Positions 2,374 to 17,451 of a DNA stretch of 64,000 bases are shown piece after piece. The translations under genes and the position numbers were made by a program. Within the stretch, counting starts at the first letter, position 1; every line of letters begins with the position of its first letter. The notes under the pieces were generated by a model. The model was not told where the DNA came from, made no database searches, and was given only the letters and a program-made list of their open reading frames with translations. This stretch comes from Planctomycetota bacterium (GTDB lineage: Bacteria; Planctomycetota; SZUA-567; H5-PLA8), in contig JBBRPR010000009.1 in NCBI GenBank assembly GCA_038227875.1, forward strand, positions 32,001 to 96,000, in the 5' to 3' direction.

Positions 2374-4434
2374 TTAGACCTCCACTTCCTTCAACTGCCG
2401 GCTTTTCGCCGCCGCCACGATCGGGCCGGCGATGTTCGGCGGGACGACGTCGTAGTGCGAAAACTCGACGGTGTAGAATCCTTCGCCGCCGGTGATCGCC
2501 TTCAATTCCGCCGAGTAATTCTGCAGCGCCGACGCCGGCACCTGCGCCCGGACGACCTGCAGATCGCCGAGCTGATCCATGCCCTGGATGCGCCCGCGAT
2601 GGCCGCTGAGGTGGCCGGTGATGTCGCCCATGAATTTTCCCGGCAGCACCACTTCCAAATTCACAATCGGCTCGATCAACTGCGGCTTGGCCTTTTCGAA
2701 TGCCTCCTTAAAACATTCGCGCGCCGCAATCTGGAATGCGATGTCTTTGGAATCGACGTCGTGATACTTGCCGTCGTTCAAACGCACCTTGACGTCGACG
2801 ACCGGAATGCCCGGCCACACGCCTTCGGCCATCTTGCTGACCACGCCCTTTTCGCAGGAAGGAATGAACTGCCGCGGAATCACGCCGCCGACGATCTCGT
2901 CGATGAATTCGAAACCGTTGCCCAGATTCGGTTCGATCTTGATCTGGCAGCGCCCGTACTGTCCCGCGCCACCGCTCTGCTTTTTGTGCGTATACGCCAC
3001 TTCCGCGACGCCGGCGATTGTCGAGCGGTACGGAATCTTCGGCGCATGCGTCACGACTTCGATGTGCTGCGCCTTCAGCCGGTGGAGCATCAAATCCAGG
3101 TGCGTCTGCCCCATGCCGCGGATCACGAGCTCGTGCGTCTGCGGGTCGACTTCGACGACAAACGACGGATCGCCTTCCGCGAACTGCCGCAGTCGCTGGC
3201 CGACCTTCGCTTCATCGTTGCGGTTCTTCGCCTCGATCGCCAGCGCCTGCATCGGCGGCGAGACGGGAATCGGCGGCAGGTACCAGCCCGTATCGTCCGT
3301 CGAGAGCGTGTCGCCAAAGTTCAGACTTTCGCACTTCGGGATCGCCACGATTTCGCCGCACGAGACGCCGTCCTGCTCCTTGGTGTCCTTGCCCTGGACG
3401 CTGAGCACATGCATGAACTTTTCCGGCTTGGCCGCGGAGGAACTCTTGGCCACACCGCCCACTGGCAGCGTGCCGGAAAAGACGCGCAGGTAACTGATCT
3501 TCCCGATGAACGGATCGCGCTTGCTCTTGATCACCTGCGCGAAGAGCGGTCCTGATGCCGACGGCGTCACGATGCGTTCTTCGTAGCCGCCAGGCTTGTC
3601 CGTAGCCTTGCGGCGCAGATGGATCGGCTCGTCGAGCGGCGAGGGGCCTTCCTCATCAATGAAGTGGAGCAGTTCCTTGATGCCGATGTCCTTCTCCGCT
3701 GAGACGCAGACAACCGGGACCATTGCTCCGCTGGTCATGCCCTTGGTGAAGCAATGTGCGATCTCTTCGTGCGAGATTTTTTCGTCCGCGAGGTAACGCT
3801 CCAGCACTTTCTCATCGGAGGAAACCGCCGTCTCCACGAGGCTGGCGTGCATCGCCTTCGCCTGTTCCTGGAGGTGTTCCGGCACCGTGCCGATCTCATC
3901 AAAGAGGTTGATCACGCCCTTGAAATCCTTGTTCTCACCGACGGGCAGAAACAGCGGCGCGACCGTTTTGCCGAAGACTTCACGGAGCTGATCCAGCACT
4001 TGCTCGAATTTCGCGCGTTCGTGATCCATCTTGGTGATCACGAAGACCTTCGGCCGTTCCAGCGCCGTGGCCATGCCCCACAATTTGCGCGTCATCACTT
4101 CCACGCCCGCGACGGCGCTGACGGCGATCAGCGTGGTCTCGGTTGCCGCCATGCCTTCGGCCGCGCCGGAGACAAAATCGGGCAGGCCGGGGCAGTCGAG
4201 CAGGTGGACGCGCTTGCCGTGAAAATCGAAATGGGCGATCGACGTTTCGATCGAATGCAGGCGTTCTTTTTCATCCGGATCGAAATCGCTGACAGTGTTT
4301 TTCTCGGCGATCGTGCCTTTTTTGCGAATGGCGCCCGCCGCGAAGAGCAGGGCTTCGGTCAGCGTGGTTTTGCCGGTGCCATTGTGTCCAACGAGAGCCA
4401 CATTGCGGATATTTTCGGGGGCGATTTTAGCCAT
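2374..4434 (-). CDS. fusA: elongation factor G paralogue (EF-G2-like)
   Basis: SD AGGAGGTG and ATG at 4434; GHNGTGKTT, DCPG and TKMD motifs; GMGQTHLD, HKKQSGGAGQYG and DGKYHDVDS of EF-G domains III-V; switch I RLHSI and DCPGL deviate from canonical RGITI/DTPGH. Confidence 0.9.
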   Translation of the reverse strand: MAKIAPENIRNVALVGHNGTGKTTLTEALLFAAGAIRKKGTIAEKNTVSDFDPDEKERLHSIETSIAHFDFHGKRVHLLDCPGLPDFVSGAAEGMAATETTLIAVSAVAGVEVMTRKLWGMATALERPKVFVITKMDHERAKFEQVLDQLREVFGKTVAPLFLPVGENKDFKGVINLFDEIGTVPEHLQEQAKAMHASLVETAVSSDEKVLERYLADEKISHEEIAHCFTKGMTSGAMVPVVCVSAEKDIGIKELLHFIDEEGPSPLDEPIHLRRKATDKPGGYEERIVTPSASGPLFAQVIKSKRDPFIGKISYLRVFSGTLPVGGVAKSSSAAKPEKFMHVLSVQGKDTKEQDGVSCGEIVAIPKCESLNFGDTLSTDDTGWYLPPIPVSPPMQALAIEAKNRNDEAKVGQRLRQFAEGDPSFVVEVDPQTHELVIRGMGQTHLDLMLHRLKAQHIEVVTHAPKIPYRSTIAGVAEVAYTHKKQSGGAGQYGRCQIKIEPNLGNGFEFIDEIVGGVIPRQFIPSCEKGVVSKMAEGVWPGIPVVDVKVRLNDGKYHDVDSKDIAFQIAARECFKEAFEKAKPQLIEPIVNLEVVLPGKFMGDITGHLSGHRGRIQGMDQLGDLQVVRAQVPASALQNYSAELKAITGGEGFYTVEFSHYDVVPPNIAGPIVAAAKSRQLKEVEV

Positions 4435-4495
4435 GGTCGAGCACCTCCTGACAGTCCCTGGATCGGGCGCACTTCTCATTGCAAGAAGTGCGATA

Positions 4496-4530
4496 AAACA
4501 AAAAAGCGAGACCTGCAGGTCTCGCTTTTT
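4496..4530 (-). terminator. intrinsic terminator in the leader of the EF-G paralogue
   Basis: Perfect 30-bp palindrome AAAAAGCGAGACCTG|CAGGTCTCGCTTTTT (4501-4530); on the minus strand it ends in TTTTTTGTTTT, about 60 nt upstream of the ATG. Confidence 0.8.
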
Positions 4531-4624
4531 ACTTACGTTTTGGTTCAACCCAGCCGCAAGAGCAGTCCCCCACGGAAGCTCTTACGGCCCAGTCATCAGG
4601 CCCGGTATGATCCCCAGTACCCAT
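4529..4624 (-). CDS. putative leaderless 31-aa leader peptide MGTGDHTGPDDWAVRASVGDCSCGWVEPKRK
   Basis: ATG lies 6 nt after a putative -10; the stop codon overlaps the terminator's 5' arm. Translation is inferred. Confidence 0.35.
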   Translation of the reverse strand: MGTGDHTGPDDWAVRASVGDCSCGWVEPKRK

Positions 4625-4630
4625 ACCTCT

Positions 4631-4659
4631 TCTATACCCCTGTTTTAAGCCTGTCGCAA
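4631..4659 (-). promoter_or_regulatory. putative sigma70-type promoter for the EF-G paralogue leader
   Basis: Minus strand TTGCGA-N17-TATAGA. Confidence 0.45.
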
Positions 4660-4775
4660 GGCCGAAACATAACACTATCACAGGGATTTGACCCGTTAGC
4701 TGCGTCGTTGCTGTTTTCCATTTCAACATTCTTGTGAATGCGAAATTCAACGCGAGTGAAGGCGCGCTGGCCTTC

Positions 4776-4813
4776 AATAAAAAGTGAAAATTGAGAAACG
4801 GAAAATCGAAGAT
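4776..4813. repeat. degenerate heptamer tandem repeat (AATNGAA-like, about 5 units)
   Basis: aataaaa agtgaaa attgaga aacggaa aatcgaa. Confidence 0.4.
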
Positions 4814-5049
4814 GCACTTTCGTTCACGGGTCAAAAAACTTTCCAACTTAACTCTTGCACAGGGACCCTTCGTATGATTAGATCAGGCTCATGGTGCTGA
4901 GCTAGGACGCTAGTCAGCAATGACCGATTCACATCTGGTTTCGCCGCAAGCCGGCTGGTCTCGCGTACTTCAGTGTACGCCCCCGGTTGCTACCTTCTCC
5001 AAGGTGGCCAGGCCCAACCAGAGGGGCTCGCAGAACAGGAGGTGATCCA

Positions 5050-5097
5050 GTGAGTAGTTGTAAACCCTACGGTGACCGGAGGTGGCTGTCCGCGTAA
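5050..5097 (+). CDS. putative 15-aa small ORF MSSCKPYGDRRWLSA
   Basis: GTG 7 nt after AGGAGG, within AGGAGGTGATCCAG; TAA at 5095-5097. Confidence 0.35.
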   Translation: MSSCKPYGDRRWLSA

Positions 5098-5172
5098 GAA
5101 GGGACGGTACTTGTTGGTGCCACTGGAACCTCTCGATGCACTTCATCAGTAGTCGAAAGAGTTCTGCAAGTG

Positions 5173-5202
5173 AAGACCGCCGCGTTCATGCGGGCCTGAT
5201 CT
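5173..5202 (+). repeat. 30-nt direct repeat, copy 1
   Basis: AAGACCGCCGCGTTCATGCGGGCCTGATCT; 27/30 identical to 6300-6329. Confidence 0.8.
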
Positions 5203-5300
5203 TTAAGAACCGTTGATCATGGTCCTTGACTGACGCAGTTACCGAGTAAGTCTCTCGGGGCTGACGGGCCTCATGCGCGTGACAGCCTTTGTAATCACCG

Positions 5301-5337
5301 CCGGCCTCCACAGTGATGTGGAGGCCGGAGTTTTTTT
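5301..5337 (+). terminator. intrinsic terminator
   Basis: CCGGCCTCCAC-agtgat-GTGGAGGCCGG then AG and a 7-T run. Confidence 0.85.
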
Positions 5338-5465
5338 ATCCCATCGCCAAGCCCATCCGCCCTAATAATTTCGACTTTTCATTGGTCACCCGCCACGAAT
5401 CGCTTTCTTAGCCGCGTCAGCAGGAGGTCACGCCTCCTCCGCACATCCAAGCTAAGGAGCGACCC

Positions 5466-6326
5466 ATGGCCGCGTATCGGTTGGAATCCCCCACTAGATT
5501 TCTGAACGCCATGTGCTCGATCACGCAGAGCGAACTGCATCCGCAAAATACGGTAACGTTGATTTCGGAAGTAGACCTGACTGAAGTGGAAAGCATTCGT
5601 CGTCGTTCGCTGGCCGGATCCAAGCCTTCTTACACGGCCTTCGTGGCCAAGGCGGTTGCGCTGGCGCTGCGGGAATTTCCCTACGCCAATCGGCGGCTGG
5701 CGCGTCTGCCCTTTCTGGGCCTGCGTCTGCAAACCTTTCAACGCATCGATGCCGCGATCCTTTGCGAGCGGGAAATGCCAGAAGCGCCCATGTTGGCTTT
5801 CGTGGATGTGATCCGCAACGCGGACAATCTTTCGCTATCTGAAACCACGGAGCGCCTGCGAGCCCTGGCCACGTGCGACGAATCGAACAACAAGCAATGG
5901 CGCGAATTCAAAACCATCATCACCACGCTGCCGTCGTGGATTGCTCAGCGGATCATCGGACTCCCGCTGCTCTTTCCCAGCCTGTGGATGAAATATCGAG
6001 GCGGGGCGTTTTCGATCAGTTCGCCGGCGAAGTATGGCGTGGATTCAATCGTTGCCACATGGCCCTGGCCGTTGGGCGTGTCGTTCGGCCTGGTCAAGCC
6101 GCGCGCCGTGATACGGAACGGGCAGGTTGTCGTCCGGACCACGTTCAATCTCACACTCAATTTCGACCGGCGGATCATGGCCGGCGCACAAGCCGCGCGT
6201 TTCTTCAAGCGCATAGTCGACATCCTGGAAAACGCCACTATCGAGATGGAGCCGTATCTCCCGGCAACGGCACCCGTAAGCAACGGTGCTTCTGCTACAA
6301 AGGCCGCCGCGTTCGTGCGGGTCTGA
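5466..6326 (+). CDS. stand-alone 2-oxoacid-dehydrogenase E2-like acyltransferase catalytic domain
   Basis: SD AAGGAG; 'SYTAFVAKAVALALREFPYAN', 'GGAFSISS', 'LTLNFDRRIMAGAQAARF'; no lipoyl domain. Confidence 0.8.
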   Translation: MAAYRLESPTRFLNAMCSITQSELHPQNTVTLISEVDLTEVESIRRRSLAGSKPSYTAFVAKAVALALREFPYANRRLARLPFLGLRLQTFQRIDAAILCEREMPEAPMLAFVDVIRNADNLSLSETTERLRALATCDESNNKQWREFKTIITTLPSWIAQRIIGLPLLFPSLWMKYRGGAFSISSPAKYGVDSIVATWPWPLGVSFGLVKPRAVIRNGQVVVRTTFNLTLNFDRRIMAGAQAARFFKRIVDILENATIEMEPYLPATAPVSNGASATKAAAFVRV

Positions 6327-6345: not shown

Positions 6346-9300
6346 CTACTTGCCCTTGAATGGAATCGGTGCGATTCCGGCCTTGCGCGCTTCGTCAATT
6401 TCGATTCGAACGAACATTGGATTGTTAGTGTTCTCTTCCATGCGTTGAGTCGCCGAATTAATGGCGTACATCAAGACTTGCGAGGACATCTCGGTCCGTA
6501 GTTGTTCCGCGCGTTCTGAATCCAATTTGGCGTAGTTCTTGTTCTTCAGATCTGTTTCACCGAGCACGGTGGTCTCGATGCAATAGCTGCGTGTTTTTGC
6601 TGCGTCCAAGTAGAAGCCAACGAAGCAATGATTTGGCGTCAGAACGAGGTAAACGTCGATTCCCATTTTCTTGAGAATCGACGCGAAGAGCACACTGCCG
6701 TCGACGCAGTTTGCCTGTTCCGACGAGAGCGAGTCTTCGAGCAGGCGCACGTGTTGACTGATGATTTTGTCGGAGCGGCCCGCGGTGCTGGTGATGCTGC
6801 TGTATTTGATTCCCCGATTTGCCAGCGCGTGCCAGACAGCTTCCACCTGCTCAAACACCTGACCATTTTGATAACCGGTGATGGACTGGATGTGATTGGT
6901 CTTCATCGCTTCGACCAGAATTTTCTGAACCTCAGGATGATCTTCGTTGACATACGCCGCGACCATCCAGCCCATATTGATGACCGGCACACGAACGTCG
7001 GTGCCGCGCATGCGAATGGGGCAATCGTTAATCGGCCTGAGCGACAGCGTCTCGTTCCGCTCTCCAATTTGGACCCCGTTTTCAAACACGGTGATCGTGA
7101 GCGTTATTGGCGTCAATTGCTTGCACTGTTGAAGCTTGTCGAATTTGTACGTAATCTTTGGCTTGATCAGATACGCTTCGCCGGCCTTGGGTAGAACTTC
7201 CTCGCACGTGCTGGGTTCGATAATTCCATCCGCTTTGAATTGAACTTTTATTTTAGCTCCGGCGGCCTGTCCTCTGACTCGTATGCCGAACATTCCTTCC
7301 ATTTCGCCCAGCTCGTGAGGATCTCCGGCCATCCGGGTTTTCTTTTTGTTGGCGGTGGCAATGATGTAGGACGGGAAAATGTTTCGATCCATTTCCAATA
7401 TGGGTTGCCATTCCAACCCGGCCGGCGTTTTTGATGTGACAGATGGATTTTCCACCCAGGCATGCTCAGCGACGGGAGGCATCTGAAGTTCGCCCTGTTT
7501 CACATTATGAGCAAATTCAAGCGGCGAGGGCTTCGCCATATGCTGCAAGTGCGCCCGAGCCCGGGCTTCTCCAATCATATCCGCCAGGAACAACGGAGCC
7601 ATCCAGGCCATGTGGCCCATGTCATTGCCTTCCACCTGTGTGGATACGATCAGTCCGGAGCCGCCATTCTTCATGGTTAACGAGACACGCGCGTCGCCTT
7701 CGGAGAGTTCGTCCATGCGACGCAGAATGAGTTCGGATCCGTCGCTGCCTTTCATGTGTTCGATGAAATCGGGATAGGATCGCAGCACGCGCAGGCATTG
7801 CTGCATCGAGCATTCAATCGCGAAGATCTGGGCTCCGCCGCATTGCGGCGTCCACGTGGATTCCGTAGTGGACGCGACCCGGCGGATGATTTCGACGTCG
7901 TTGCTGACCAGCAGAAAGTCATCGACGATGCCAAAGGACATGAAATCGGCAGCGCTCGAACTCAGCACGACGTTCTTGCCGCTATCCGTCTTTGGATTTC
8001 TGCCGTAATCGTTCCGTTGCACGGCGCCGAATTTCTCCATGGACTGTTTGGCCAGCGCCAAGGCCGCGTTGGAATCCGTGTATCGAATAAAGAATACGCT
8101 GCGTGGCTCCTTGACCGATCCCGTCGGGCTATACAAAGCCAATCCAAATGTTCCGTCCGTCAGTATTGTGTTCAAATTTGACGGCGGGATGCCATAGCCT
8201 TCGCAGAATCCACGCTTTACGGCGTCCCAGTCCTGACCCATCGTGCGACGCCCGAAATCATCAAGATTTTTCAGGCTGAACGTCATTGCCAGCATGGGTT
8301 TTCCCATGCGACCCAGCAACCCGGCGCTCGACTGTCGTCCGTCGATTTCGCTTAGGAGGTGGGACGTCTTTGCGAAGAGAACGTGCGCGGCGCTGGTGAG
8401 CTTTTCATTTGAAAAGGCAATGCCCCGGACCTCATCAATCACTTTTGGTGGTTTGATCCATGACGGCAGCATTTCAAAGGTTCGGGCCAGGCTGAAGTAC
8501 CCTGAAAACTCGCCGTTCTTCTGAAGCGGCGCAACGGCAGACTTGAAATCATCCATGTCCGACAACGGCGGGTTATCGCGCTCTTGGAGAAAGGGCTTGA
8601 TCACGCCATCGACGGCAAATCGGCTCAGAGGCAACCCGATCAGAATCCGTCCTTTGACGACAGTCATTTCGATCACATCGGGCACGCGGTATACGATCTG
8701 GCTGGTGCCGGTTTCGGTAATTTTCGCGCCCTGGGCTTCGCAAATTTTGCGAAATGTCGTCAGCGGCGTGGCTTCGTCCAACGCCCAGGCACTGATCACG
8801 ATGCCCTGAACTTCACGCTGGACCACAATTGAAATTGGATGGGATAAATCAATTCCGGCCTTGGTGTAGTCCTTGGGATTGAAAATGTCGAAACTGGTCG
8901 ATTCTTTCACCTGCGCCGCCGCTGCTTTTATTTCTTTCGCGCCTGGGCTGGAGGAGTTTTTCGCAACCTGCTCCACGAAGGAAGTCAGACTTTTGTCCGG
9001 ATGCGAAATGGAAAAGACGGCCAAGCTGTCAGACGGTGCATGAGCCGCTTCGGTCAAGGCGTCGGGTTCCGCAGCGACAACCACCGGAGGCGGCGGAGTC
9101 AGGATGCTCATGCCCACAAAGAGGGCCACCGCCAGGATGGCTACGATTCCGCCCGCAATTAGATATATTTTCAAACCGCGGCCTTCAGGCGCCGGCGATT
9201 CTGGCTCTGTGTAGACGTGCGAGGAAGGGGCAACAATGGCAGGCGCCATGGGTTCCGGCACCGCCGGTGAAGCGACGGTTCCCTGCGGAACTTCGACTGG

Positions 9301-9495
9301 AGCGGCCGCGGGTGCGGGAGCGGCGGATCGGTTCAGCGCCGCCATTTCTCCGGCCGGCGTCCACACCGCCTGGTCCGATGAGACCGAGTGAAATTTGGTG
9401 ACTTGCCCCATTTGGTAGAGGCGTCCCAATTCGTCCAGCGAGTAAGGCCCTATGATTTTTCCACGCCAGCGGACAAAGTACGGACCATTACTCAT
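6346..9495 (-). CDS. GYF_2(DUF4339)-like domain, TM, DUF3352-like region and C-terminal transglutaminase-like domain
   Basis: N-terminal 'YFVRWRGKIIGPYSLDELGRL...W'; Pro/Ala linker; TM IYLIAGGIVAILAVALFVGM; C-terminal 'ANCVDGSVLFASIL...PNHCFVG...IETT'. Confidence 0.75.
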   Translation of the reverse strand: MSNGPYFVRWRGKIIGPYSLDELGRLYQMGQVTKFHSVSSDQAVWTPAGEMAALNRSAAPAPAAAPVEVPQGTVASPAVPEPMAPAIVAPSSHVYTEPESPAPEGRGLKIYLIAGGIVAILAVALFVGMSILTPPPPVVVAAEPDALTEAAHAPSDSLAVFSISHPDKSLTSFVEQVAKNSSSPGAKEIKAAAAQVKESTSFDIFNPKDYTKAGIDLSHPISIVVQREVQGIVISAWALDEATPLTTFRKICEAQGAKITETGTSQIVYRVPDVIEMTVVKGRILIGLPLSRFAVDGVIKPFLQERDNPPLSDMDDFKSAVAPLQKNGEFSGYFSLARTFEMLPSWIKPPKVIDEVRGIAFSNEKLTSAAHVLFAKTSHLLSEIDGRQSSAGLLGRMGKPMLAMTFSLKNLDDFGRRTMGQDWDAVKRGFCEGYGIPPSNLNTILTDGTFGLALYSPTGSVKEPRSVFFIRYTDSNAALALAKQSMEKFGAVQRNDYGRNPKTDSGKNVVLSSSAADFMSFGIVDDFLLVSNDVEIIRRVASTTESTWTPQCGGAQIFAIECSMQQCLRVLRSYPDFIEHMKGSDGSELILRRMDELSEGDARVSLTMKNGGSGLIVSTQVEGNDMGHMAWMAPLFLADMIGEARARAHLQHMAKPSPLEFAHNVKQGELQMPPVAEHAWVENPSVTSKTPAGLEWQPILEMDRNIFPSYIIATANKKKTRMAGDPHELGEMEGMFGIRVRGQAAGAKIKVQFKADGIIEPSTCEEVLPKAGEAYLIKPKITYKFDKLQQCKQLTPITLTITVFENGVQIGERNETLSLRPINDCPIRMRGTDVRVPVINMGWMVAAYVNEDHPEVQKILVEAMKTNHIQSITGYQNGQVFEQVEAVWHALANRGIKYSSITSTAGRSDKIISQHVRLLEDSLSSEQANCVDGSVLFASILKKMGIDVYLVLTPNHCFVGFYLDAAKTRSYCIETTVLGETDLKNKNYAKLDSERAEQLRTEMSSQVLMYAINSATQRMEENTNNPMFVRIEIDEARKAGIAPIPFKGK

Positions 9496-9498
9496 CAG

Positions 9499-12495
9499 CT
9501 ACAATCCTTTCTCACTCTTCTTGATGTCGCCGATGTTCGTGGGCCACAGCGCTGGCACAACGGGGGAATTCTTGAGGTAGCGGTCATACAATTCCTCCGT
9601 GCCCATCTTTGCATCGACAGGCGAGAGGAGCGGCTGGCCCAGGGTAAGTAGTTCTGGATGGTACCAGACCAGAGAGCCATCACTGCCCACGGCGGCTGCA
9701 ATGCGAAAATAGGGAATCTTGTCCTGCATGACGAGAGTCCAATATTCCCGATAGCTCTGCCCGCCAATGTCGTGCGCCACGCGATTACCCTTCTGGTCGC
9801 GCATGAATACTGCACTGAGGCACAGGGGCCGCGTCAGCGCGATGCTCTCCGCTTTGACACGCGCGGGCTGTCCGGCAATGACGCTTTCGAGATGCTTTTT
9901 CAGCTTGGGCGTCAACTCGGCAAGGCGCTCTGAAATCTTTCTCAGCTCCGTCTGAATCGAGGGGTCATCGGTCATCCAGAAATTGAGCTTATCTGCGGAT
10001 AGTGCATCAATTTCCGTTTGCAGTGCGGCGGGAATGGCAAGACAACAGAATTTATCCTTATCCAGGACGGTCAGCTTCTGCAGCAACAAAACATGGACCC
10101 ATGGATTTACATCTTTATATTCCAATACGTCGCGAACGAGGGTGGGGAAGTCCTGCTCCCACTCCATTTTTTCAGCCGAGGCCTTCAACTTTTTTGCTAC
10201 TTCGCTTGCGAGTTCGCAATGCCGCGCAGGCACGATGTCGGAAACGTCACCAGGCTCCTGCGGCATAAGTGATTTGGGTTTCATGGTGTCGTCAAGGAAA
10301 GCTTTGATCTGGATTTTTCCATCACCCACATTGAGCTTGGATTCTCCATTGGCGGTGTAATAAATTTTTCCACCCATTTGAAATTGATTCATTTTTGTCA
10401 AAAGGTCGTGATTTAAAACTTTAAATAGATCCGCGAGTTCATTCTTGTAGTCCGCATGAAAAGCCGCGCGAAACCGGTGTAATTTCAATTGATCGCTGTA
10501 AGGAGAAATGGGAATTTCCGGGCGAACTCTGGCCACAGCGGCGGCATATTTTACGTACGAGGGCGATTCCTGACCGGCAACCGACTTGATCGCATCCCCG
10601 TATTCCGCGACAGCCTTGTACGAAGGGGCCATGATTTTCCACTGCTGAAGCCCCTGTGTCTCGGGGATTTCGCCGTACGATTCGGCGAGCTTGGCGATCT
10701 CTTCAGCGTAGGCATTCAAGTCGGGCATTTTCTGGCAGGCTTTGAATAGATCCTTCTGCACCTTCTCAAGAGTTGCGCGCTCCTTGTCCTCCTTGGAGAT
10801 TACTTTTTCCAAGCGATTCTTTTCGTCTACGTAGCGCTTGCGAAAGTCCTGAACTGTACGCACGAGCTCGGTTTCTTCCTTCAATCCTTTGTACGCTTCC
10901 AGGCGCAGTAGCAGATCGTCCATCTTGACAAGCCGTTCCCGTAAACTATCGGAGGTCACGGTGCTTTGAACGGCCTTGTAAGCTTCGGTCACTTCGCTCA
11001 TCAGTCCCCGGGCCGCTTTAACGTTTTCATCTTTGCGCTTAAAGCGCACGGCCTCCACGTTTGCTCTGCACTCCGCCAGGCGTGCCTTCTCTTCATCCGA
11101 GCGTACGAGTGTATTGGCGTCGGAAATCGCGGTGTCGAGCGTCGGCGAAAATGGCTCTTCCAACTTTCCCGCGAGTTCCAAATCCGTTTCGAGACGCTTC
11201 TGGCGCACCCCTTCGTCAGATTTCGCCTGGTTGAATGCCAGTACCTCGCGATGAATTCCCCCGTCGTCGAGCAGGTCCGGCGCGTCGCGTCCAATCGAGC
11301 TGATGAAGGTCTGCCCGCCTTTAAAGTCAGCGGTATCGGTATAGCGATGAATTTGCGCGGCGATTGCGCTGCGTTTCTGGCCGGCGGAAATCGCGACCAC
11401 GATCCACAGTACCAGAAGTATTCCGGCCAGTACTCCGCCACCGATGGCCGCCAGGCGCAGGTTCTTCTTCAGCGACACCGCGTTGTCGCGCGCTTTGACG
11501 TAAGACTCTGCCTTCTTTCGCAAATCGTCTGGCAACTCGCGCTTACCCAGCTTATTGAGCAGTTGCCGAACTTGCGCCGGATCTCCCGCGCTCTGAATCA
11601 GTGTGCGCAGTTCCTGGCAGTCCGCGGCGAAGGTGACCTCCTGTTCGCGCTGCGTTTTCTGCTCGGTGTGCCAGTACCGCGCATCTTCGACGACGGCGGT
11701 CTTGTCGGGCGCAATCGATACGCCCTCGTTTTTGGAAAGCTCATCCAATTCTTTAAGCGCGGAGCCGACCTGATCGTAGTCGTTGGCGGCAGTGCCGATG
11801 TTCAAGCGATTGATCAAGTTCTCCATCGCCTGATGCACGCGCGCGGATTTCAGCCTTTGGTGAATTTCTTTTGCAAACGTAATCAATTGATCGCCGGGAA
11901 TGACGAGCAGCTGTTTGTCGGTCAGTTCCTTTACGTACTCCGCCGCAATATCCTCGGTCATGCCTTCCGGCTTGCGCAGCAACTCCCCGATCTCCTTGCA
12001 GCGGGCGACTTCGAGTGCTTTCAGGTCGTCGGGCCAGTTGGGATTGGCCGGATCCAAGGCACGAATTCGGCGTACGATGGAGATTTTCTCAGCGGTGCTG
12101 CCGCCTTTGACGCTGAGGCGCCGGTAGACCTTTTGCATCGGCTCGAGTGCTTCGTGTTTTCCGTAGGCTTCCTGCAGCGTCTGGATCCGGCCGGAGTTGA
12201 TGGACGGCGGCACCGGCAAGTTGTTGGAAACGGTGTAGCTCGTCCAGACATCGAGACCTTCGAAATCGAGCGCTGCGAGAACGTCCAGCAGGGGCGGGGG
12301 CGTTTCGGCGAGATGGATGGCTTCCGAACGCAGACCGCGGTTGATGTGCTCGTAGATTTCATCGAGCCGGCGCACGGCTTCGTTGGCGATGACGGCATAA
12401 TCTGTGGCCAGAGACGAAGCCTCCGCCGGATCGACGGGGATCTTGCGGACGACGATGTCTTTGATGCGGTTAACGGTGGTTTGGTAATTGGGCAC
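9499..12495 (-). CDS. large all-helical membrane-anchored protein of the GTPase-associated operon
   Basis: 998 aa, GTG start after SD GAGGAG; helical/coiled-coil composition; central TM LAAIGGGVLAGILLVLWIVVAI. Confidence 0.8.
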   Translation of the reverse strand: MPNYQTTVNRIKDIVVRKIPVDPAEASSLATDYAVIANEAVRRLDEIYEHINRGLRSEAIHLAETPPPLLDVLAALDFEGLDVWTSYTVSNNLPVPPSINSGRIQTLQEAYGKHEALEPMQKVYRRLSVKGGSTAEKISIVRRIRALDPANPNWPDDLKALEVARCKEIGELLRKPEGMTEDIAAEYVKELTDKQLLVIPGDQLITFAKEIHQRLKSARVHQAMENLINRLNIGTAANDYDQVGSALKELDELSKNEGVSIAPDKTAVVEDARYWHTEQKTQREQEVTFAADCQELRTLIQSAGDPAQVRQLLNKLGKRELPDDLRKKAESYVKARDNAVSLKKNLRLAAIGGGVLAGILLVLWIVVAISAGQKRSAIAAQIHRYTDTADFKGGQTFISSIGRDAPDLLDDGGIHREVLAFNQAKSDEGVRQKRLETDLELAGKLEEPFSPTLDTAISDANTLVRSDEEKARLAECRANVEAVRFKRKDENVKAARGLMSEVTEAYKAVQSTVTSDSLRERLVKMDDLLLRLEAYKGLKEETELVRTVQDFRKRYVDEKNRLEKVISKEDKERATLEKVQKDLFKACQKMPDLNAYAEEIAKLAESYGEIPETQGLQQWKIMAPSYKAVAEYGDAIKSVAGQESPSYVKYAAAVARVRPEIPISPYSDQLKLHRFRAAFHADYKNELADLFKVLNHDLLTKMNQFQMGGKIYYTANGESKLNVGDGKIQIKAFLDDTMKPKSLMPQEPGDVSDIVPARHCELASEVAKKLKASAEKMEWEQDFPTLVRDVLEYKDVNPWVHVLLLQKLTVLDKDKFCCLAIPAALQTEIDALSADKLNFWMTDDPSIQTELRKISERLAELTPKLKKHLESVIAGQPARVKAESIALTRPLCLSAVFMRDQKGNRVAHDIGGQSYREYWTLVMQDKIPYFRIAAAVGSDGSLVWYHPELLTLGQPLLSPVDAKMGTEELYDRYLKNSPVVPALWPTNIGDIKKSEKGL

Positions 12496-12511
12496 GGAAA
12501 ATTAGCTCCTC

Positions 12512-15316
12512 TTATTTACCATTGAATTCAAACTGAGCGGCGTCGGAGTTAAAACTTACCATCGGAGCCATTAATTTGACTCTTTCTACGATCAACTCCT
12601 TTTCAAGTTTGTTTGTATTAATAAAACTATTTAAAGCATTTATTAACGCGACCTTCGCACATTTAAGACTATTTGTTTCATCGTTCACAAATGCGTCAAA
12701 TTTCGCTTTTTCAGCCGGGACTACATCATAGTTTTGAAATTTTAAACTGGCTTCCGCCAATTTTCTTCGATAGGATTCAAATTTGGTATTAATGTCTTTG
12801 ACTAATAAGGGCACTGAAATCTTAACTAGCTGATCATCAATTTCTTGCCGGCGCAGGTCTTTTTCTGCGACCTTTGATTTGATCTTTTCGACTTCGATAT
12901 CGATTGAATCTACAAAAACAACTTTTGCCACTAGGGACCCGTTAGCATTTATTACTCCAATCTCTATACTTGCGATATTGTCTGTTGAGTTCTTTTCGAC
13001 TACCGATGACGTTAGCGTGCCTTCGGAAATAGATAAAGACAAAACTGGCTCCGATTTTATTTCCATATCTAATCCTAAATGTTTAGATATATTTCGATTT
13101 AATGTCCAGCCGCTTTTCTTGCTAATATTTAAAGTATATCGTTTGCTGGCTCCGACTGGACTATACACTAACTCACTAGAATCCTTTGGAATTTGACATT
13201 TTCCTATTGGGCTAATCTTGCATTTTTGATACAGGCTCCATACGTTGTCTCTATATTGCAAGCCCAGTTCAAGGATGGGTCTATCAGAACCCCTTGGGGG
13301 GGATATTTTTAGAAGAAAATCGGACTTTAGAATAGACGCTACATCATTGTCGATTGAATTTTGTTTGCTTATTCGAATTCGTTCTTGGTCAAGTGAAATT
13401 GTAAGCAAGTTATTTTCGCGCTCAAGAAGCTCGTAATCTTCGGTCCCTTTTACATTTCGAAGCGTCAGTTTGTGGCCAGCCATGCCATCGCCACTTGAGA
13501 CTATTTCAGGATTTTTAAGTGGCATGTCTAAATTTAACCACTCATCGATCTTCTTGGTTTCTGTCTTTGCTTCTACTACTAACTGCGGAGTGATCTCGAC
13601 TTGCGGGAGACGGGAATTGTCGATTTTTGGAGGATTTACATTTATTGAAATGACTCCTTGTGCTGCCTCGCCATCCTCATTCTTAATGCTGTAATTAAGA
13701 ACCGTTTTTCCAACGTTAGACAAGGTGCCTTTTAGCACACCGGATTTCTCCAAGGTCAATGTGTCGGGCATCGATCCAGCGGGTTCATACGTCTGATTTG
13801 CTTCTGCGAGTGCCAAAGAATGCTTGAATGGCGTTCCGGCAATTTCTTCAAAGGCAGGGTCTGCTATTGCAATGGGCAATTTCGCGCGAATTCGAAGTTT
13901 CAACACGCGTGACGATTCTAGATTTTCTCGCGTTGCGCGGAATCTAACCTGACCATCGAAGTGCTCTAAAGGCGTACCTCTTAAGACGGCACCCTCAAGG
14001 GTTAGGCCCTTTGGGAGCTCGGATTCAACGGATATTTTTGCGAATTGGTGGTCTCCTAGTTCGATTGAACACTTATAAAACTCGCCGATTCGTCCCGCTG
14101 GAAGCATCGTTGTCGCAATTTCGGGAGAATCGACTATGCCTTTTGATATGGTTTCGCCGGGTACATCAATCTGCGGAATCGCTTTTGCTTGATTGATCAG
14201 GCAATAGATGCCCACACCCGCGCAGAGAAAGGCCGCCCCCATAATCACGAGCGGAACCCACGGTACGCCTTTACTTTTTTCAGCCACCAGAGGCGTAGCC
14301 TGAGCCTTGGACGGGCCGTGGATCGCATGTGGTACCATCGCGGGATCGATGCTCGGGGCCGCAACGGCGGCGGCTTGCACCACCACTTTTGCGGGCGTCG
14401 CCGCACTAATCACGACTTTCTTTGCAGCCGCGCCAGACTTTGCGGCCTCGGCGGGGCGGGCTGCAGCTGCGGCGGTTAAACTCGCCGGCGCGCCAGCGCG
14501 TGCCCAGCCAATCCGTGCCTCGGCGTGCGCATCGGTCAGGCTTGCTTCGCCCTTGATCACTTTCACGCCGCTTCCGGAGACATCCAGGATCCACGCCTGC
14601 GGATTGCGACGAAGATCCGTGAGCAGCGTCGAATCCGGCAGGATGCATTGAATGTTGCAAAGAGCTGTCGGCCGGTCGGTCAAGTAGGTGCTGAACGTTG
14701 TGGTCCAGCGTTTTTCGGACGGGAGCAGCGCCAGGACATCGTCGACCAGATTCAGAGTCGGCTGGCCAGCGTTGAAGATGAGTCCGATCTGGGTCGCGGG
14801 TTGATCGAAGAGACGCTGGGCGATGACGCCAGCCCAGCCCGCATCGCCTCCGGGCAACTCCTGCCACGCGGTGGCGGGTTTACTGGGACGCACCGCCGCC
14901 CGAAATTGCTTTCGGTTGGGCGGGAATTCAACGGGCTCGCCCTGCCATTGCGTTTCGAATAGACCGGGCTCCAAGGCGGCCCACGCCGGTCCGCCGGGCG
15001 GCAGATCTCCACCGTCGGCCATCGCGAAATGATGCGCGCACTTATTCGTGCGTCCGGAATAATCCGCGCCGGCGTCACCAATGCGTGAGAGCACGCGGTA
15101 GGTTCGGCCACCGGCCTGAACCTGGCTGCAGAGAATGTTTACGGGTTGCACCAGCGGCTGCTGGGCTCGCGCTTCCAGCCACCGATAGCCGCTCATACTT
15201 TCGAGCGCCTGATCCAGACTCGCGGGAAAACCCGCGGTCCGGGCAACCGTGCAGAAACCACGACTACCCGGTTTCAGCCCCTTGGGTGCAGAAGTATAGA
15301 TGAGTTCATAAATCAT
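12512..15316 (-). CDS. GTPase-associated protein 1 (GAP1-N2/GAP1-M-like), TM, putative Ig repeats and coiled coil
   Basis: 'ELIYTSAPKGLKPGSRGFCTVART', 'DYSGRTNKCAHH', 'WAGVIA', 'LLPSEKRWTTTFSTY' match recalled GAP1-N2/M motifs; He_PIG-like 'LPKGLTLEGAVLRGTP'. Confidence 0.75.
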   Translation of the reverse strand: MIYELIYTSAPKGLKPGSRGFCTVARTAGFPASLDQALESMSGYRWLEARAQQPLVQPVNILCSQVQAGGRTYRVLSRIGDAGADYSGRTNKCAHHFAMADGGDLPPGGPAWAALEPGLFETQWQGEPVEFPPNRKQFRAAVRPSKPATAWQELPGGDAGWAGVIAQRLFDQPATQIGLIFNAGQPTLNLVDDVLALLPSEKRWTTTFSTYLTDRPTALCNIQCILPDSTLLTDLRRNPQAWILDVSGSGVKVIKGEASLTDAHAEARIGWARAGAPASLTAAAAARPAEAAKSGAAAKKVVISAATPAKVVVQAAAVAAPSIDPAMVPHAIHGPSKAQATPLVAEKSKGVPWVPLVIMGAAFLCAGVGIYCLINQAKAIPQIDVPGETISKGIVDSPEIATTMLPAGRIGEFYKCSIELGDHQFAKISVESELPKGLTLEGAVLRGTPLEHFDGQVRFRATRENLESSRVLKLRIRAKLPIAIADPAFEEIAGTPFKHSLALAEANQTYEPAGSMPDTLTLEKSGVLKGTLSNVGKTVLNYSIKNEDGEAAQGVISINVNPPKIDNSRLPQVEITPQLVVEAKTETKKIDEWLNLDMPLKNPEIVSSGDGMAGHKLTLRNVKGTEDYELLERENNLLTISLDQERIRISKQNSIDNDVASILKSDFLLKISPPRGSDRPILELGLQYRDNVWSLYQKCKISPIGKCQIPKDSSELVYSPVGASKRYTLNISKKSGWTLNRNISKHLGLDMEIKSEPVLSLSISEGTLTSSVVEKNSTDNIASIEIGVINANGSLVAKVVFVDSIDIEVEKIKSKVAEKDLRRQEIDDQLVKISVPLLVKDINTKFESYRRKLAEASLKFQNYDVVPAEKAKFDAFVNDETNSLKCAKVALINALNSFINTNKLEKELIVERVKLMAPMVSFNSDAAQFEFNGK

Positions 15317-15366
15317 AATTTTTTCGTTCTAGTCTCTAAAGAACATCACGAAGGGCGCCTTAACTT

Positions 15367-17451
15367 TCAAACGCCCGGTGTTGGCGATTCCGGCTTGGGC
15401 ACGACAAACGGTTTTCCAGTCACAGGGTGATGCAGGGTGCGACCGGCATAGCGTTCAGGAATTTGCAGCAGCGCTCCGGGATTGCCCGAGCCGTCCGGAA
15501 TTTCGCAGAACAGCAATCCGCCCGCCTTGCGAACCAGGTTCGCGGACTCTGCTCCAGGCGTCTTGCTTGATCCTGCCAGGAGCATTCCCCTGCGAGCAAG
15601 GGTGTACAAAAAGGGCACGTTCACCCAGACCGGCTTGATGTCGGCAGGCCGGATGCGATTGAAAAACAATTTTCGCCGGGGCGAATTGGGCTTGAGATCT
15701 TCAGCCGTCGGGAAATTACCATCGGCATCCATCAGCGTCGGCGAGTGGCCCTGCGCACTGATCGGCATGTACGAAACATCCGCCGCAAAGTCTTCCGCGG
15801 CCGAAACCACTTCCGGGCACGTCTGCTGCAAGAGCGCGCGCAGCGAAAACGAGACGTCCTCCACGTGCCCGACATCCAGCCCCGTGACGGCATGTTTCTG
15901 GGATTGCACGTAAGGCGGCTGCCTCAAATTAATGGACAGCAGATTGCCCCAGATATCCATTTTGCCCACGATGACGATGAACAAGCCCTTGTATTTGTCC
16001 CGCTGGCTAAGCCCCAGGTAGCGGCGCACGCGGCGCGCGACTTCATTGAGGATCACATCCTGGCGCTGCAACTCCGCGCCCGGTTGAACCTGCGGGTCGG
16101 TGCTGGAAACTTTGGACCGGAAGCGCGGATCCTTGGTCGGATCAAACACGAAGAATATACAATCCGAACGCGCCATATGCTGCGTGGTGGGCGCATTCAC
16201 CTGCTCGGATCCCGGTTGAAAATGTTCTCCAGCATTGTCGTAAAGAATGATGCTGCGTCCGCTGTTTTGCGCGTTCTGGGAGAGCGGGTTGTGATCCAGC
16301 GCGCGGAGGCTGAAAATAAACGGTTTGGGGTACAGCGTGATCTGACCGTTGAAATTCACCGCGTTGTAAAACTGATCGCCTTCGCCCTGCGTCTTTTCCA
16401 GTCGCACATAAGCGTCCGGATCCTGGGGAAGAAAGAGTTTCTCTTCGTTTTCCTGCAGGCTGATGTTCATCGTCGCGTCGGCGTCGGTGAAGGCGAAGCC
16501 GAATTCGTTGTTCAACGAACGGCGCAGTTCCCAGGTCAGCGTGGCCAGCAGGTACGACTTGCCGCTCTTGGGCGCACCGATGACAGAAACAAAGAGCGGC
16601 TTAAATTCCGCGAGACACTTGGGTACTTCCAAGTGACAGTTGGGACACGCCATTTCATGGCTGGGCATGCCGCCTGGATCGATCGCCTGACCGTCCGGTG
16701 TAAAACGGGTCGGTTTGAAACGCTGCGGCGCATTCCCGCCCAGGAAGGGATCTCCAATCAAATCGGGATGGCGCGCGATGTAAAGCCCGTCTTCCAGCGG
16801 AAACACCGTCATGCAGTGCGGACAGGTACAAGTGTCCGCATCGCCGTGCTTCAACGGGCCGGGTTTATAACGCTCAACCAACGGTGCGGAGATGGGGGCG
16901 GCCAGCGGCACCGTGGATTGCGCCGGGGCGGGTGCGAAATTCGCAACATTGGCCGGCGCGGGCGCTGGCGCCGGCGCTGGCGGCGGCGCGGCCGGTCGAG
17001 CCATCATTTCTCCCAAATCCACGACGATCTCTTCGCCATTGGATGAGGACGTGGGCGCAATTGGCGATGGCATGCTGACGGCGAAGGCCGGAGTTTTCTG
17101 ATCGTTAAATGACACTGGCGGCGGTGAGGCCAGAGTTGCCATGGGCGTCAAAGGCGGCAACGGCGCACTTGGCGTCAACGGTGCTGTGGAGAGCGGCTCC
17201 GACGTATACAAGTCGCCCACATCCAGGGATAACGCCTCTCCACTGGAGGCCACAGGAAATTGCGCGAAGACATTGGCGAACGCATCGCCTGCGCGAACGA
17301 AGTTCTTTCGGTCTTTGCTGACCGGAGTCTCTATAGTGATCAACCCGGTTTTAATGCGCTGAGTAATTTTTCCTAAATCGTACGGTCCCTCGGTGGGATT
17401 GTTGGGGCGTACGATGTACCACTTATCTTCACCGCGAAGCAGCCGAAACAT
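15367..17451 (-). CDS. TRAFAC-clade (double-GTPase-2-like) GTPase with N-terminal GYF-like domain, Pro-rich linker and Zn ribbon
   Basis: 'WYIVRP..EGPYDL' GYF-like start; CPHC...CPNC; GAPKSGKS, EKTQ, YDNAGE, GKMD and ISA G-motifs. Confidence 0.8.
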   Translation of the reverse strand: MFRLLRGEDKWYIVRPNNPTEGPYDLGKITQRIKTGLITIETPVSKDRKNFVRAGDAFANVFAQFPVASSGEALSLDVGDLYTSEPLSTAPLTPSAPLPPLTPMATLASPPPVSFNDQKTPAFAVSMPSPIAPTSSSNGEEIVVDLGEMMARPAAPPPAPAPAPAPANVANFAPAPAQSTVPLAAPISAPLVERYKPGPLKHGDADTCTCPHCMTVFPLEDGLYIARHPDLIGDPFLGGNAPQRFKPTRFTPDGQAIDPGGMPSHEMACPNCHLEVPKCLAEFKPLFVSVIGAPKSGKSYLLATLTWELRRSLNNEFGFAFTDADATMNISLQENEEKLFLPQDPDAYVRLEKTQGEGDQFYNAVNFNGQITLYPKPFIFSLRALDHNPLSQNAQNSGRSIILYDNAGEHFQPGSEQVNAPTTQHMARSDCIFFVFDPTKDPRFRSKVSSTDPQVQPGAELQRQDVILNEVARRVRRYLGLSQRDKYKGLFIVIVGKMDIWGNLLSINLRQPPYVQSQKHAVTGLDVGHVEDVSFSLRALLQQTCPEVVSAAEDFAADVSYMPISAQGHSPTLMDADGNFPTAEDLKPNSPRRKLFFNRIRPADIKPVWVNVPFLYTLARRGMLLAGSSKTPGAESANLVRKAGGLLFCEIPDGSGNPGALLQIPERYAGRTLHHPVTGKPFVVPKPESPTPGV

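Follow-up and report, generated by a model that had tools for sequence, protein, structure and literature searches.

A previously uncatalogued structured RNA gene of Planctomycetota with an extended Shine-Dalgarno sequence and a micro-open reading frame interlocked with its fold

A stand-alone, single-copy, structured RNA gene, member of a previously uncatalogued family spread across Planctomycetota, was identified in a stretch of 64,000 nucleotides (nt) from a planctomycete genome assembly (GCA_038227875.1, contig JBBRPR010000009.1, positions 32,001 to 96,000 of the forward strand; hereafter the window, in whose numbering all coordinates are given). Between a covarying 5' domain and a 3' domain that ends in an intrinsic terminator, the RNA carries an extended Shine-Dalgarno (SD) sequence complementary to the 3' tail of 16S rRNA, followed by a micro-open reading frame (micro-ORF) whose last codons are paired with the 3' domain. 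From these features of the sequence and its relatives, a translation-gated, ribosome-engaging RNA, acting as a riboregulator or a ribosome-state sensor, is tentatively proposed, with a chance slightly short of even.

Extent, distribution and transcription of the RNA gene

A sequence-only reading of the window had marked 4878-5337 as a stand-alone structured RNA free of long open reading frames (ORFs) and closed by a clear terminator. The stand-alone unit and its 3' end were upheld, and its start was moved to ~4890, since 4880-4888 overlaps the putative -10 element. The + strand of 4878-5337 contained no ORF of at least 60 amino acids. Its minimum free energy (MFE) was -191.7 kcal/mol compared to a shuffle mean of -165.6 (26 kcal/mol better, z = -4.0), with none of 100 dinucleotide shuffles equalling it. 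The reverse strand folded nearly as well (z = -3.9), and the strand call therefore needs evidence beyond folding energy; such evidence is given by the intrinsic terminator, by a conserved -35/-10-like pair and by every covariance-model match having the same orientation. In an alignment of 15 genomes the TTG of the -35 hexamer was kept and the relatives showed a -10-like hexamer 16-17 nt downstream, which places the probable transcription start at ~4890. The terminator was located at 5301-5328 plus the T-run; its stem was paired in 93.2% of cells and 8 of its 12 pairs changed on both sides. Full-length homologues from the same taxonomic family spanned 316-501 nt, and a covarying terminator closed every one of them. 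The features of the gene in the window are as follows.

~4890-5337, + strand: RNA gene of ~448 nt, delimited by homologue conservation, copy number and lengths
4855-4883, + strand: promoter-like site with -35 TTGCAC (4855-4860), 17-nt spacer, TGn and -10-like TTAGAT (4878-4883)
4896-4918, + strand: P1 hairpin with a conserved GGACGC loop; nine pairs in RNAalifold of 29 sequences, most of them compensatory
4934-5022, + strand: 5' multi-helix domain, in which P2 and P2b enclose P3, P4 and P5
4934-4940/5016-5022, + strand: P2, TCTGGTT/AACCAGA, covarying
4943-4945/5011-5013, + strand: P2b, within P2
4950-4954/4983-4987, + strand: P3, enclosed by P2/P2b
4963-4968/4975-4980, + strand: P4, GCGTAC/GTACGC, covarying
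4989-4995/5002-5008, + strand: P5, GCTACCTT/AAGGTGGC, covarying, its loop with a conserved anti-SD-like YCUCC
5037-5050, + strand: extended SD AGGAGGTGATCCAG, a 14-nt complement of the 16S rRNA 3' tail, with invariant columns
5050-5097, + strand: micro-ORF with a GTG start 7 nt past GGAGG, 15 codons and a TAA stop
5070-5075, + strand: 5' strand of helix Htc, CGGTGA, pairing with TCACCG at 5295-5300 just before the terminator
5078-5082, + strand: second, in-frame SD-like GGAGG (codons CGG AGG TGG), with 12 nt from its end to the stop, placed in the internal loop that separates Htc from Hlong
5084-5094, + strand: 5' strand of helix Hlong, the last ORF codons GGCTGTCC.CG, pairing with 5276-5287
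5086-5091/5102-5107, + strand: alternative local hairpin CTGTCC/GGACGG with the stop codon in its loop, competing with Hlong
5120-5134, + strand: candidate internal anti-SD/anti-start element CCACTGGAACCTCTC, paired with the SD by RNAfold (p ~0.84)
5195-5222, + strand: Hc hairpin with the conserved loop TTTAAGAACCGTT; compact forms of the RNA are without Hc
5242-5270, + strand: Hd hairpin CCGAG/CTCGG (5242-5246/5254-5258), showing covariation, then the conserved motif GGGGCTGACGGGCC
5276-5300, + strand: 3' strands of Hlong (5276-5287) and Htc (5295-5300), from the full-model alignment
5301-5337, + strand: intrinsic terminator, hairpin 5301-5328 (12-bp stem, 4-nt loop) plus T-run

The RNA matched no catalogued family. 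A search of the whole window with Rfam 15 at the gathering score gave no matches, and at E-values up to 10 over 4400-5600 gave noise only, the best match inside the RNA being CC2171 with 17.9 bits against a threshold of 75. ARAGORN found no tRNA or transfer-messenger RNA (tmRNA) in the window. The accessible parts of the literature on planctomycete small RNAs, anti-SD sequences, structured RNAs and Rhodopirellula-1 (including PMC2864571 and PMC5737381) contained nothing on this RNA.

BLASTN found one copy in the source genome and a copy in each of 14 out of 16 genomes from its family; 44 genomes from six other families of the class gave none. Covariance model R1 again matched 14 of the 16 family genomes and none of three genomes from the other families of the order; across the class it gained one compact homologue, in family f7, and a class-level match that sits within a protein-coding region (L082) was rejected as false. 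A pattern taken from the most conserved part of the RNA, inside the ORF, was found in 14 species genomes, all labelled as metagenome-assembled genomes of Planctomycetota, and in 23 metagenome contigs, and these matches together with the relatives make up 31 distinct family sequences. A pattern search of 401 genomes of the phylum added homologues from two further families.

A core model, R2, was built on the family and three outliers from three families beyond it. Among 151 sampled Planctomycetota genomes at least 85% complete, R2 matched 24, with one match per genome, and 20 of the 24 matches fell in 11 further families. All 20 of these other-family matches showed the same parts on inspection. 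Homologues of the RNA thus exist, and they covary as described below. The matches were unevenly spread, with 5 of 6 genomes matched in family f28 compared to 0/7, 0/7 and 0/3 in the well-sampled and highly complete families f10, f19 and f4; either its distribution across the phylum is patchy, or its sequence in the families lacking matches is too diverged for R2 under strict filters. Near-complete genomes are available in families f28, f47 and f74.

Sequences of the RNA were also present in RNA libraries. Six metatranscriptome runs held 24-40% of the sampled words of this stretch, and four runs from four studies (a bioreactor, two soils and a plant) were mapped on 4700-5520. All contigs fell within 4891-5299, the 5'-most covered base being 4891, with none in 4700-4867 or 5316-5520, and one contig of 220 nt differed from the window by a single base. 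This confinement agrees with the discrete transcript that had been expected and hints at an abundant one; contigs cannot show transcript ends, and the coverage gaps outside 4891-5299 are a weak hint.

The fold and its interlock with the reading frame

Conservation of the fold was analyzed in a full model of 28 full-length sequences with 68 pairs, comprising P2, P2b, P3, P4, P5, Htc, Hlong, Hc, Hd and the terminator. Cells of the model were paired in 84.3% of cases compared to 76.6% in column shuffles, none of 500 of which reached the model value, and in 36-42% when the register was slid. Both sides changed in 43 of the 68 pairs against a shuffle mean of 25.5, and the covariation score was 0.222 for the model and 0.117 for the control. 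For the 5' part, RNAalifold of 29 sequences predicted 37 pairs, 21 with compensatory changes, and in the full model 22 of the 27 pairs of the 5' domain (helices 1-5) changed on both sides. In Hc (helices 9-11) this was true of 5 of 7 pairs, and the two outermost pairs (helix 9) were kept in 43.8% of cells. For the Hd region, a GACGG motif was conserved in other families as well.

Four helices proposed from the window's letters alone, namely those now named P2, P4, P5 and the stem of Hd, proved to be conserved with compensatory changes. The 9-bp stem AGATCAGGC/GCCTGATCT (4880-4888/5194-5202), which had been taken to close a domain of ~320 nt, is present in this sequence and is not conserved: among 10 homologues with the 3' motif, a complement of at least 5 nt at the 5' end was found only here, the other nine having at most 4 nt. 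Its 5' arm overlaps the putative -10 upstream of ~4890, and its 3' arm pairs locally in the relatives with GATCAGG, as part of Hc. The pairing GCTCA/TGAGC and the GTCA-GCAA-TGAC hairpin clash with the conserved and strongly covarying P1, as does CATGGTCC/GGGCCTCATG with the covarying Hc, and none of the three was confirmed. The 3' arm of GCAGAAC/GTTCTGC sits in an insert that cannot be aligned between genera.

Two further elements were conserved. The 13-nt loop of Hc (5202-5214) was kept across the genera with the long form and could serve as a tertiary contact or as a seed for pairing in trans. A GCCCCC run (4979-4984) and an (A)GGGGGGC run (5020-5027) were kept, too, and could pair across P2 as a pseudoknot or an alternative fold, their variation being too small to decide on the pairing.

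The ribosome-docking part of the RNA lies between the two domains. Every sequence has (G)AAAGGAGGTG.TCCAG at this place, the columns GGAGGTG.TCC..GTG are invariant in the alignments, and most relatives have a complement of 16-17 nt to 16S rRNA, as in GAAAGGAGGTGGTCCAG. The 16S rRNA of two family genomes ends in ...CTGGATCACCTCCTTTC / ...GCGGCTGGATCACCTCCTTTCT, so that the complement in the RNA extends over all of the single-stranded 3' tail. One position inside the complement varies among A, G, C and T.

Downstream of the SD, the reading frame was kept in every sequence. In the family, all 31 sequences have a GTG start 7 nt past GGAGG and an ORF of 14-16 codons in register; the lengths of 14, 15 and 16 codons occur in 8, 8 and 15 sequences, their differences are multiples of three, and the stops (TAA 22, TAG 8, TGA 1) share one alignment column. 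In the other families, all 23 homologues have a start 6-11 nt past GGAGG (14 GTG and 9 ATG, at shifted positions) and an ORF of 9-18 codons. All 31 family sequences have 12 nt between the second GGAGG and the stop, and of the 23 from other families, 17 have 9 or 12 nt; by geometry, this puts the site at an apparently initiation-like distance from the P site of a terminating ribosome.

The 3' half of the frame closes the 3' domain. Over its five inner pairs, Htc was paired in 99.3% of cells and its outermost sixth pair was kept in 15 of 28 sequences; the columns never vary, and covariation speaks neither for nor against it. Hlong was paired in 95.8% of cells, and 4 of its 11 pairs changed on both sides, with compensatory examples GTTTGTCC/GGACAAAC, GAGCTGTCC/GGACAGCTC, CCTCG/CGGGG and CCTTG/CGAGG in the family and GGCTGTC/GACAGTC and GGCTGGG/CCCAGTC in other families. 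Residue changes in the last codons (W to L, R, C or E; A to S, L or T) were compensated in the distal strand and are therefore ascribed to RNA pairing. In the competing local hairpin, the GGACGG/GACGG arm was conserved and covarying examples were seen. That the stop codon always sits in a hairpin loop was considered and given up as a strict rule, for only 30 of the 54 sequences have it wholly in the loop of the local MFE hairpin, many of the remaining ones having it at the apex.

Elements complementary to the SD were found downstream of it. In the window, the duplex of 5120-5134 with the SD reached -18.9 kcal/mol, a value equalled by 17 of 200 shuffles. In compact forms of the family, the downstream element CACUGGCCGCGUCCUUU complements the SD and the start. 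In L006 and L007, an internal element (CUGGAUCGACCUCUU and CUGGAUCAGCCUCUU, respectively) ~60 nt past the micro-ORF stop nearly duplicates the 16S rRNA 3' tail and pairs with the SD of the same RNA; for CUGGAUCGACCUCUU of L006 the duplex reached -25.0 kcal/mol, which none of 200 shuffles equalled. These near-copies could imitate the site bound by proteins specific for the 3' end of 16S rRNA.

Proposed function and competing explanations

The sequence-only reading had offered either a stand-alone structured noncoding RNA or a tightly folded mRNA for a small protein. This interpretation was supported, and each half of it appears to hold in part, since a conserved micro-ORF and its SD belong to the RNA. 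Two start solutions, three stop codons at one structural place and length changes that stay in frame together suggest that the micro-ORF is translated and that its translation remodels the RNA. In the proposed mechanism, 30S subunits would load on the extended SD and then translate the micro-ORF, and the translating ribosome would have to melt Htc and Hlong. As it nears the stop, its anti-SD may re-pair with the internal GGAGG and hold the ribosome there. The RNA would switch between two folds, one closed and untranslated, the other open and occupied by a ribosome. The peptide, being poorly conserved, would not be its output; that part would fall to the freed 3' domain or to the bound ribosome.

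Several observations weigh against a translation-gated RNA of this kind, in which translation, ribosome binding and output are in-silico predictions, or are at best neutral towards it. The conserved half of the ORF has invariant third codon positions, and RNA pairing alone explains the conservation there; an open frame of 9-18 codons would not be surprising by chance; the 3-nt indels sit in an (AGT)n-like repeat, which could slip by threes free of coding constraint; the conserved GGTGGCT motif is read in a different frame in one family (L084); and the peptides vary widely between families. Apparent invariance of the ORF is inflated by the family sequences picked by pattern, a bias from which the BLAST and covariance-model matches are free. 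A downstream element masking the SD beat shuffles clearly in 9 of 51 sequences only; a closed state may thus not be general, and the general anti-SD element masking SD and start was set aside in favour of a clade-specific feature. A consensus sigma-70 scan called no site at 4855-4883, so the promoter comes from the alignment only, and the RNA-library runs were chosen for holding this stretch and such libraries can contain DNA.

A bolder form of the translation-gated reading would place the RNA in a new class, in which the ribosome is captured through the entire 16S 3' tail, a minimal frame is translated and the anti-SD is captured again at the stop. Acting in trans, such an RNA might sense or buffer ribosome, initiation or termination capacity. 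It would correspond in function to the mRNA-like domain of tmRNA, with initiation at an SD and with conservation across a whole phylum. On the sequence features at hand this is doubtful.

The element may instead encode a very small peptide, secreted or regulatory, with 9-18 amino acids and the C-terminal motif R-R-W-L/P-S-x, its fold merely stabilising the mRNA and tuning translation; this reading is unlikely. All 54 sequences have a perfect SD, a start and an in-register stop, the ending R-(R)-W-(L/P)-S/T recurs in at least seven families besides this one, and a structured RNA before a short ORF has a precedent, as far as the accessible part of the source goes, in the yfr6/Downstream-peptide RNA (PMC2864571). 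However, the conserved residues are exactly those coded by paired or SD-like nucleotides, the changes of W and of the last residue are non-conservative and compensated at the RNA level, and the N-terminal halves are unrelated between families, three of which (f47, f46 and f74) lack the motif. Together with the invariant third positions, the pairing-driven changes indicate that the RNA and not the peptide is the selected object in the conserved half. A covarying 5' domain of ~150 nt and an SD of 16-17 nt also exceed the needs of an mRNA.

It is rather improbable that the RNA is not translated at all and binds the 30S subunit or pre-16S rRNA through its 14-17-nt complement, as a sponge or in hibernation or maturation, with an incidental ORF. 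The complement spans the whole single-stranded 16S tail, far beyond normal SDs; nucleotide-level invariance in the ORF fits RNA constraints; and some clades have an internal near-copy of the 16S tail, as in L006. Against this, the start is kept at 6-11 nt in 54/54 sequences by GTG or ATG at shifted positions, and the variable position in the complement implies that full pairing with 16S rRNA is not strictly selected.

The layout of 5' domain, short ORF, alternative pairings and terminator resembles that of an attenuator, and the next gene in the window, an acyltransferase gene at 5466-6326, lies on the same strand 128 nt past the T-run. Nevertheless, a cis-acting leader (riboswitch or attenuator) that gates read-through of the terminator into this gene is very improbable: the genes downstream differ in family and strand, both between genera and among 18 other-family homologues, the conserved terminator is a strong one, and the RNA-library contigs end before it. 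More generally, the flanking genes are unrelated between genera and between the 18 other-family loci (72 flanking ORFs compared with Pfam), and the RNA is therefore not the leader of a particular operon.

The neighbourhood in the window was described along with the flanks. The gene at 5466-6326 (+ strand) encodes a stand-alone protein of 286 amino acids that consists only of the catalytic acyltransferase domain of 2-oxoacid dehydrogenase E2, with neither lipoyl nor E3-binding domains. Beyond it, four large ORFs form an operon on the - strand (6346-17451), a GTPase-centred putative conflict system: 6346-9495 (1049 amino acids) with GYF_2 as its sole domain, 9499-12495 (998 amino acids) with no Pfam match, 12512-15316 with GAP1-N2 and GAP1-M domains, and 15367-17451 with a weak match to DO-GTPase2. 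It is probably what had been meant earlier by a conflict-system operon about 1 kb from the RNA; the GAP1/DO-GTPase operon does adjoin, but its closeness looks coincidental, as the flanks differ between genera and families. PADLOC assigned no family to five neighbouring proteins, including those of the four operon ORFs. On the other side, divergent from the RNA, a translational GTPase of 724 amino acids resembling EF-G, with all five EF-G domains, is encoded at 2374-4548 (- strand); this adjacency is not kept in the relatives. A bidirectional terminator-like hairpin (4501-4530) lies inside or at the 5' end of the ORF as listed, and the true start of the EF-G-like gene is therefore probably further downstream.

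The RNA is typical of known housekeeping RNAs (tmRNA, RNase P RNA, signal recognition particle (SRP) RNA or 6S RNA) in its size, its single copy, its strong structure and its occurrence in RNA libraries. A diverged member of one of these can hardly be at issue, as the window holds no Rfam or ARAGORN match, tmRNA, RNase P and SRP RNAs lie elsewhere in the genome, and 6S RNAs are not known to have a conserved SD, start or ORF.

Apart from 6S RNA, the individual candidates were rejected in the same manner, and the earlier statement that hallmarks of tmRNA, RNase P and SRP RNA are lacking agrees with this outcome. For tmRNA (RF00023 and permuted forms), the canonical gene is on contig C116; a permuted tmRNA, suggested by the motif GGGGCTGA, was rejected since the elements stand in the wrong order and a normal tmRNA exists. 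RNase P RNA (RF00010) gave a 268-bit match elsewhere, on contig C68, and SRP RNA (RF00169) is present elsewhere in 5/5 family genomes. 6S RNA (RF00013) was found neither in the window nor in 5/5 family genomes, with a weak model that found it in 5 of 14 control genomes, which makes its absence uninformative; 6S RNA is a ~180-nt rod with a central open-promoter-like bubble and bears no resemblance to a multi-domain fold with an SD/ORF core. A type I toxin-antitoxin system was discarded since the peptides are polar and basic with no hydrophobic stretch; an antisense RNA was not searched for. In the part of the 2010 Weinberg catalogue available, the only planctomycete motif is Rhodopirellula-1, a short transposase-linked hairpin (PMC2864571), and its consensus (AACAA...GAU..GAAC...GUUAUC...ACGUU) showed no resemblance in sequence, size or context.

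The most conserved part of the family is a ribosome loading site and a minimal frame interlocked with the fold; translation and RNA biology of this phylum have hardly been explored. If the RNA does sense or sequester ribosomes, a new principle in bacterial translational control would follow; if it is only a micro-peptide gene, it is still a widespread unannotated one. Models R1 and R2 would allow its annotation in Planctomycetota genomes and metatranscriptomes. To our knowledge, few large structured RNAs of unknown function span a whole phylum, and new biology has come from every one that was solved.

Relation to known systems

The mRNA-like domain of tmRNA is similar in belonging to a single-copy structured RNA of ~350-450 nt with a frame of ~10 codons and flanking folded domains; in helix 5 of tmRNA, too, a hairpin contains the 3' part of the frame and has the stop in or close to its loop. 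In contrast to tmRNA, the RNA described here has no tRNA-like domain, resume codon or alanine-rich tag, and has an SD and a start codon instead.

Leader-peptide attenuators (trpL, pheL and hisL) share with it a frame of 14-16 codons, alternative pairings at the frame end and a terminator. The overlap of the frame end with mutually exclusive pairings was found here as well, Hlong and the stop-codon hairpin sharing nucleotides, with translation being predicted. Unlike these attenuators, the RNA has no conserved downstream operon, ~200 nt from stop to terminator, a large 5' domain and no runs of regulatory codons beyond R-R-W.

Recoding signals such as prfB (+1) and dnaX (-1) contain an in-frame GGAGG-type site before a stop or hairpin that can pair with the anti-SD of the elongating ribosome. 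The second GGAGG occupies the same kind of position upstream of the stop, but no slippery sequence or extended second frame is present, and the P-site spacing is 6-9 nt, as in initiation, compared to 3 nt in prfB.

Dual-function small RNAs (SgrS/SgrT, RNAIII/hld and SR1/SR1P) are likewise stand-alone, structured transcripts with their own promoter and terminator and a small ORF, and the GGACGC loop of P1 and the loop of Hc are candidate base-pairing seeds here. Their ORFs, in contrast, are longer and independent of the core fold, and they are not known to have a 16-17-nt anti-16S SD or a second in-frame SD-like site near the stop.

In the cyanobacterial yfr6/Downstream-peptide (glutamine-II) RNA, a small transcript, a conserved folded 5' element precedes a short ORF according to the accessible part of the source (PMC2864571), an arrangement that is repeated here. 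Unlike that RNA, the present one matched no Rfam aptamer, its ORF (9-18 codons) and 3' end belong to the fold, and no ligand is suggested.

No catalogued family joins a full-length anti-16S SD, a second in-frame SD-like site, closure of the 3' domain by the 3' half of the ORF and a phylum-wide, context-free distribution. The functional kind of the RNA is not established; as an RNA family it is, because of this combination of four features, rated as categorically new.

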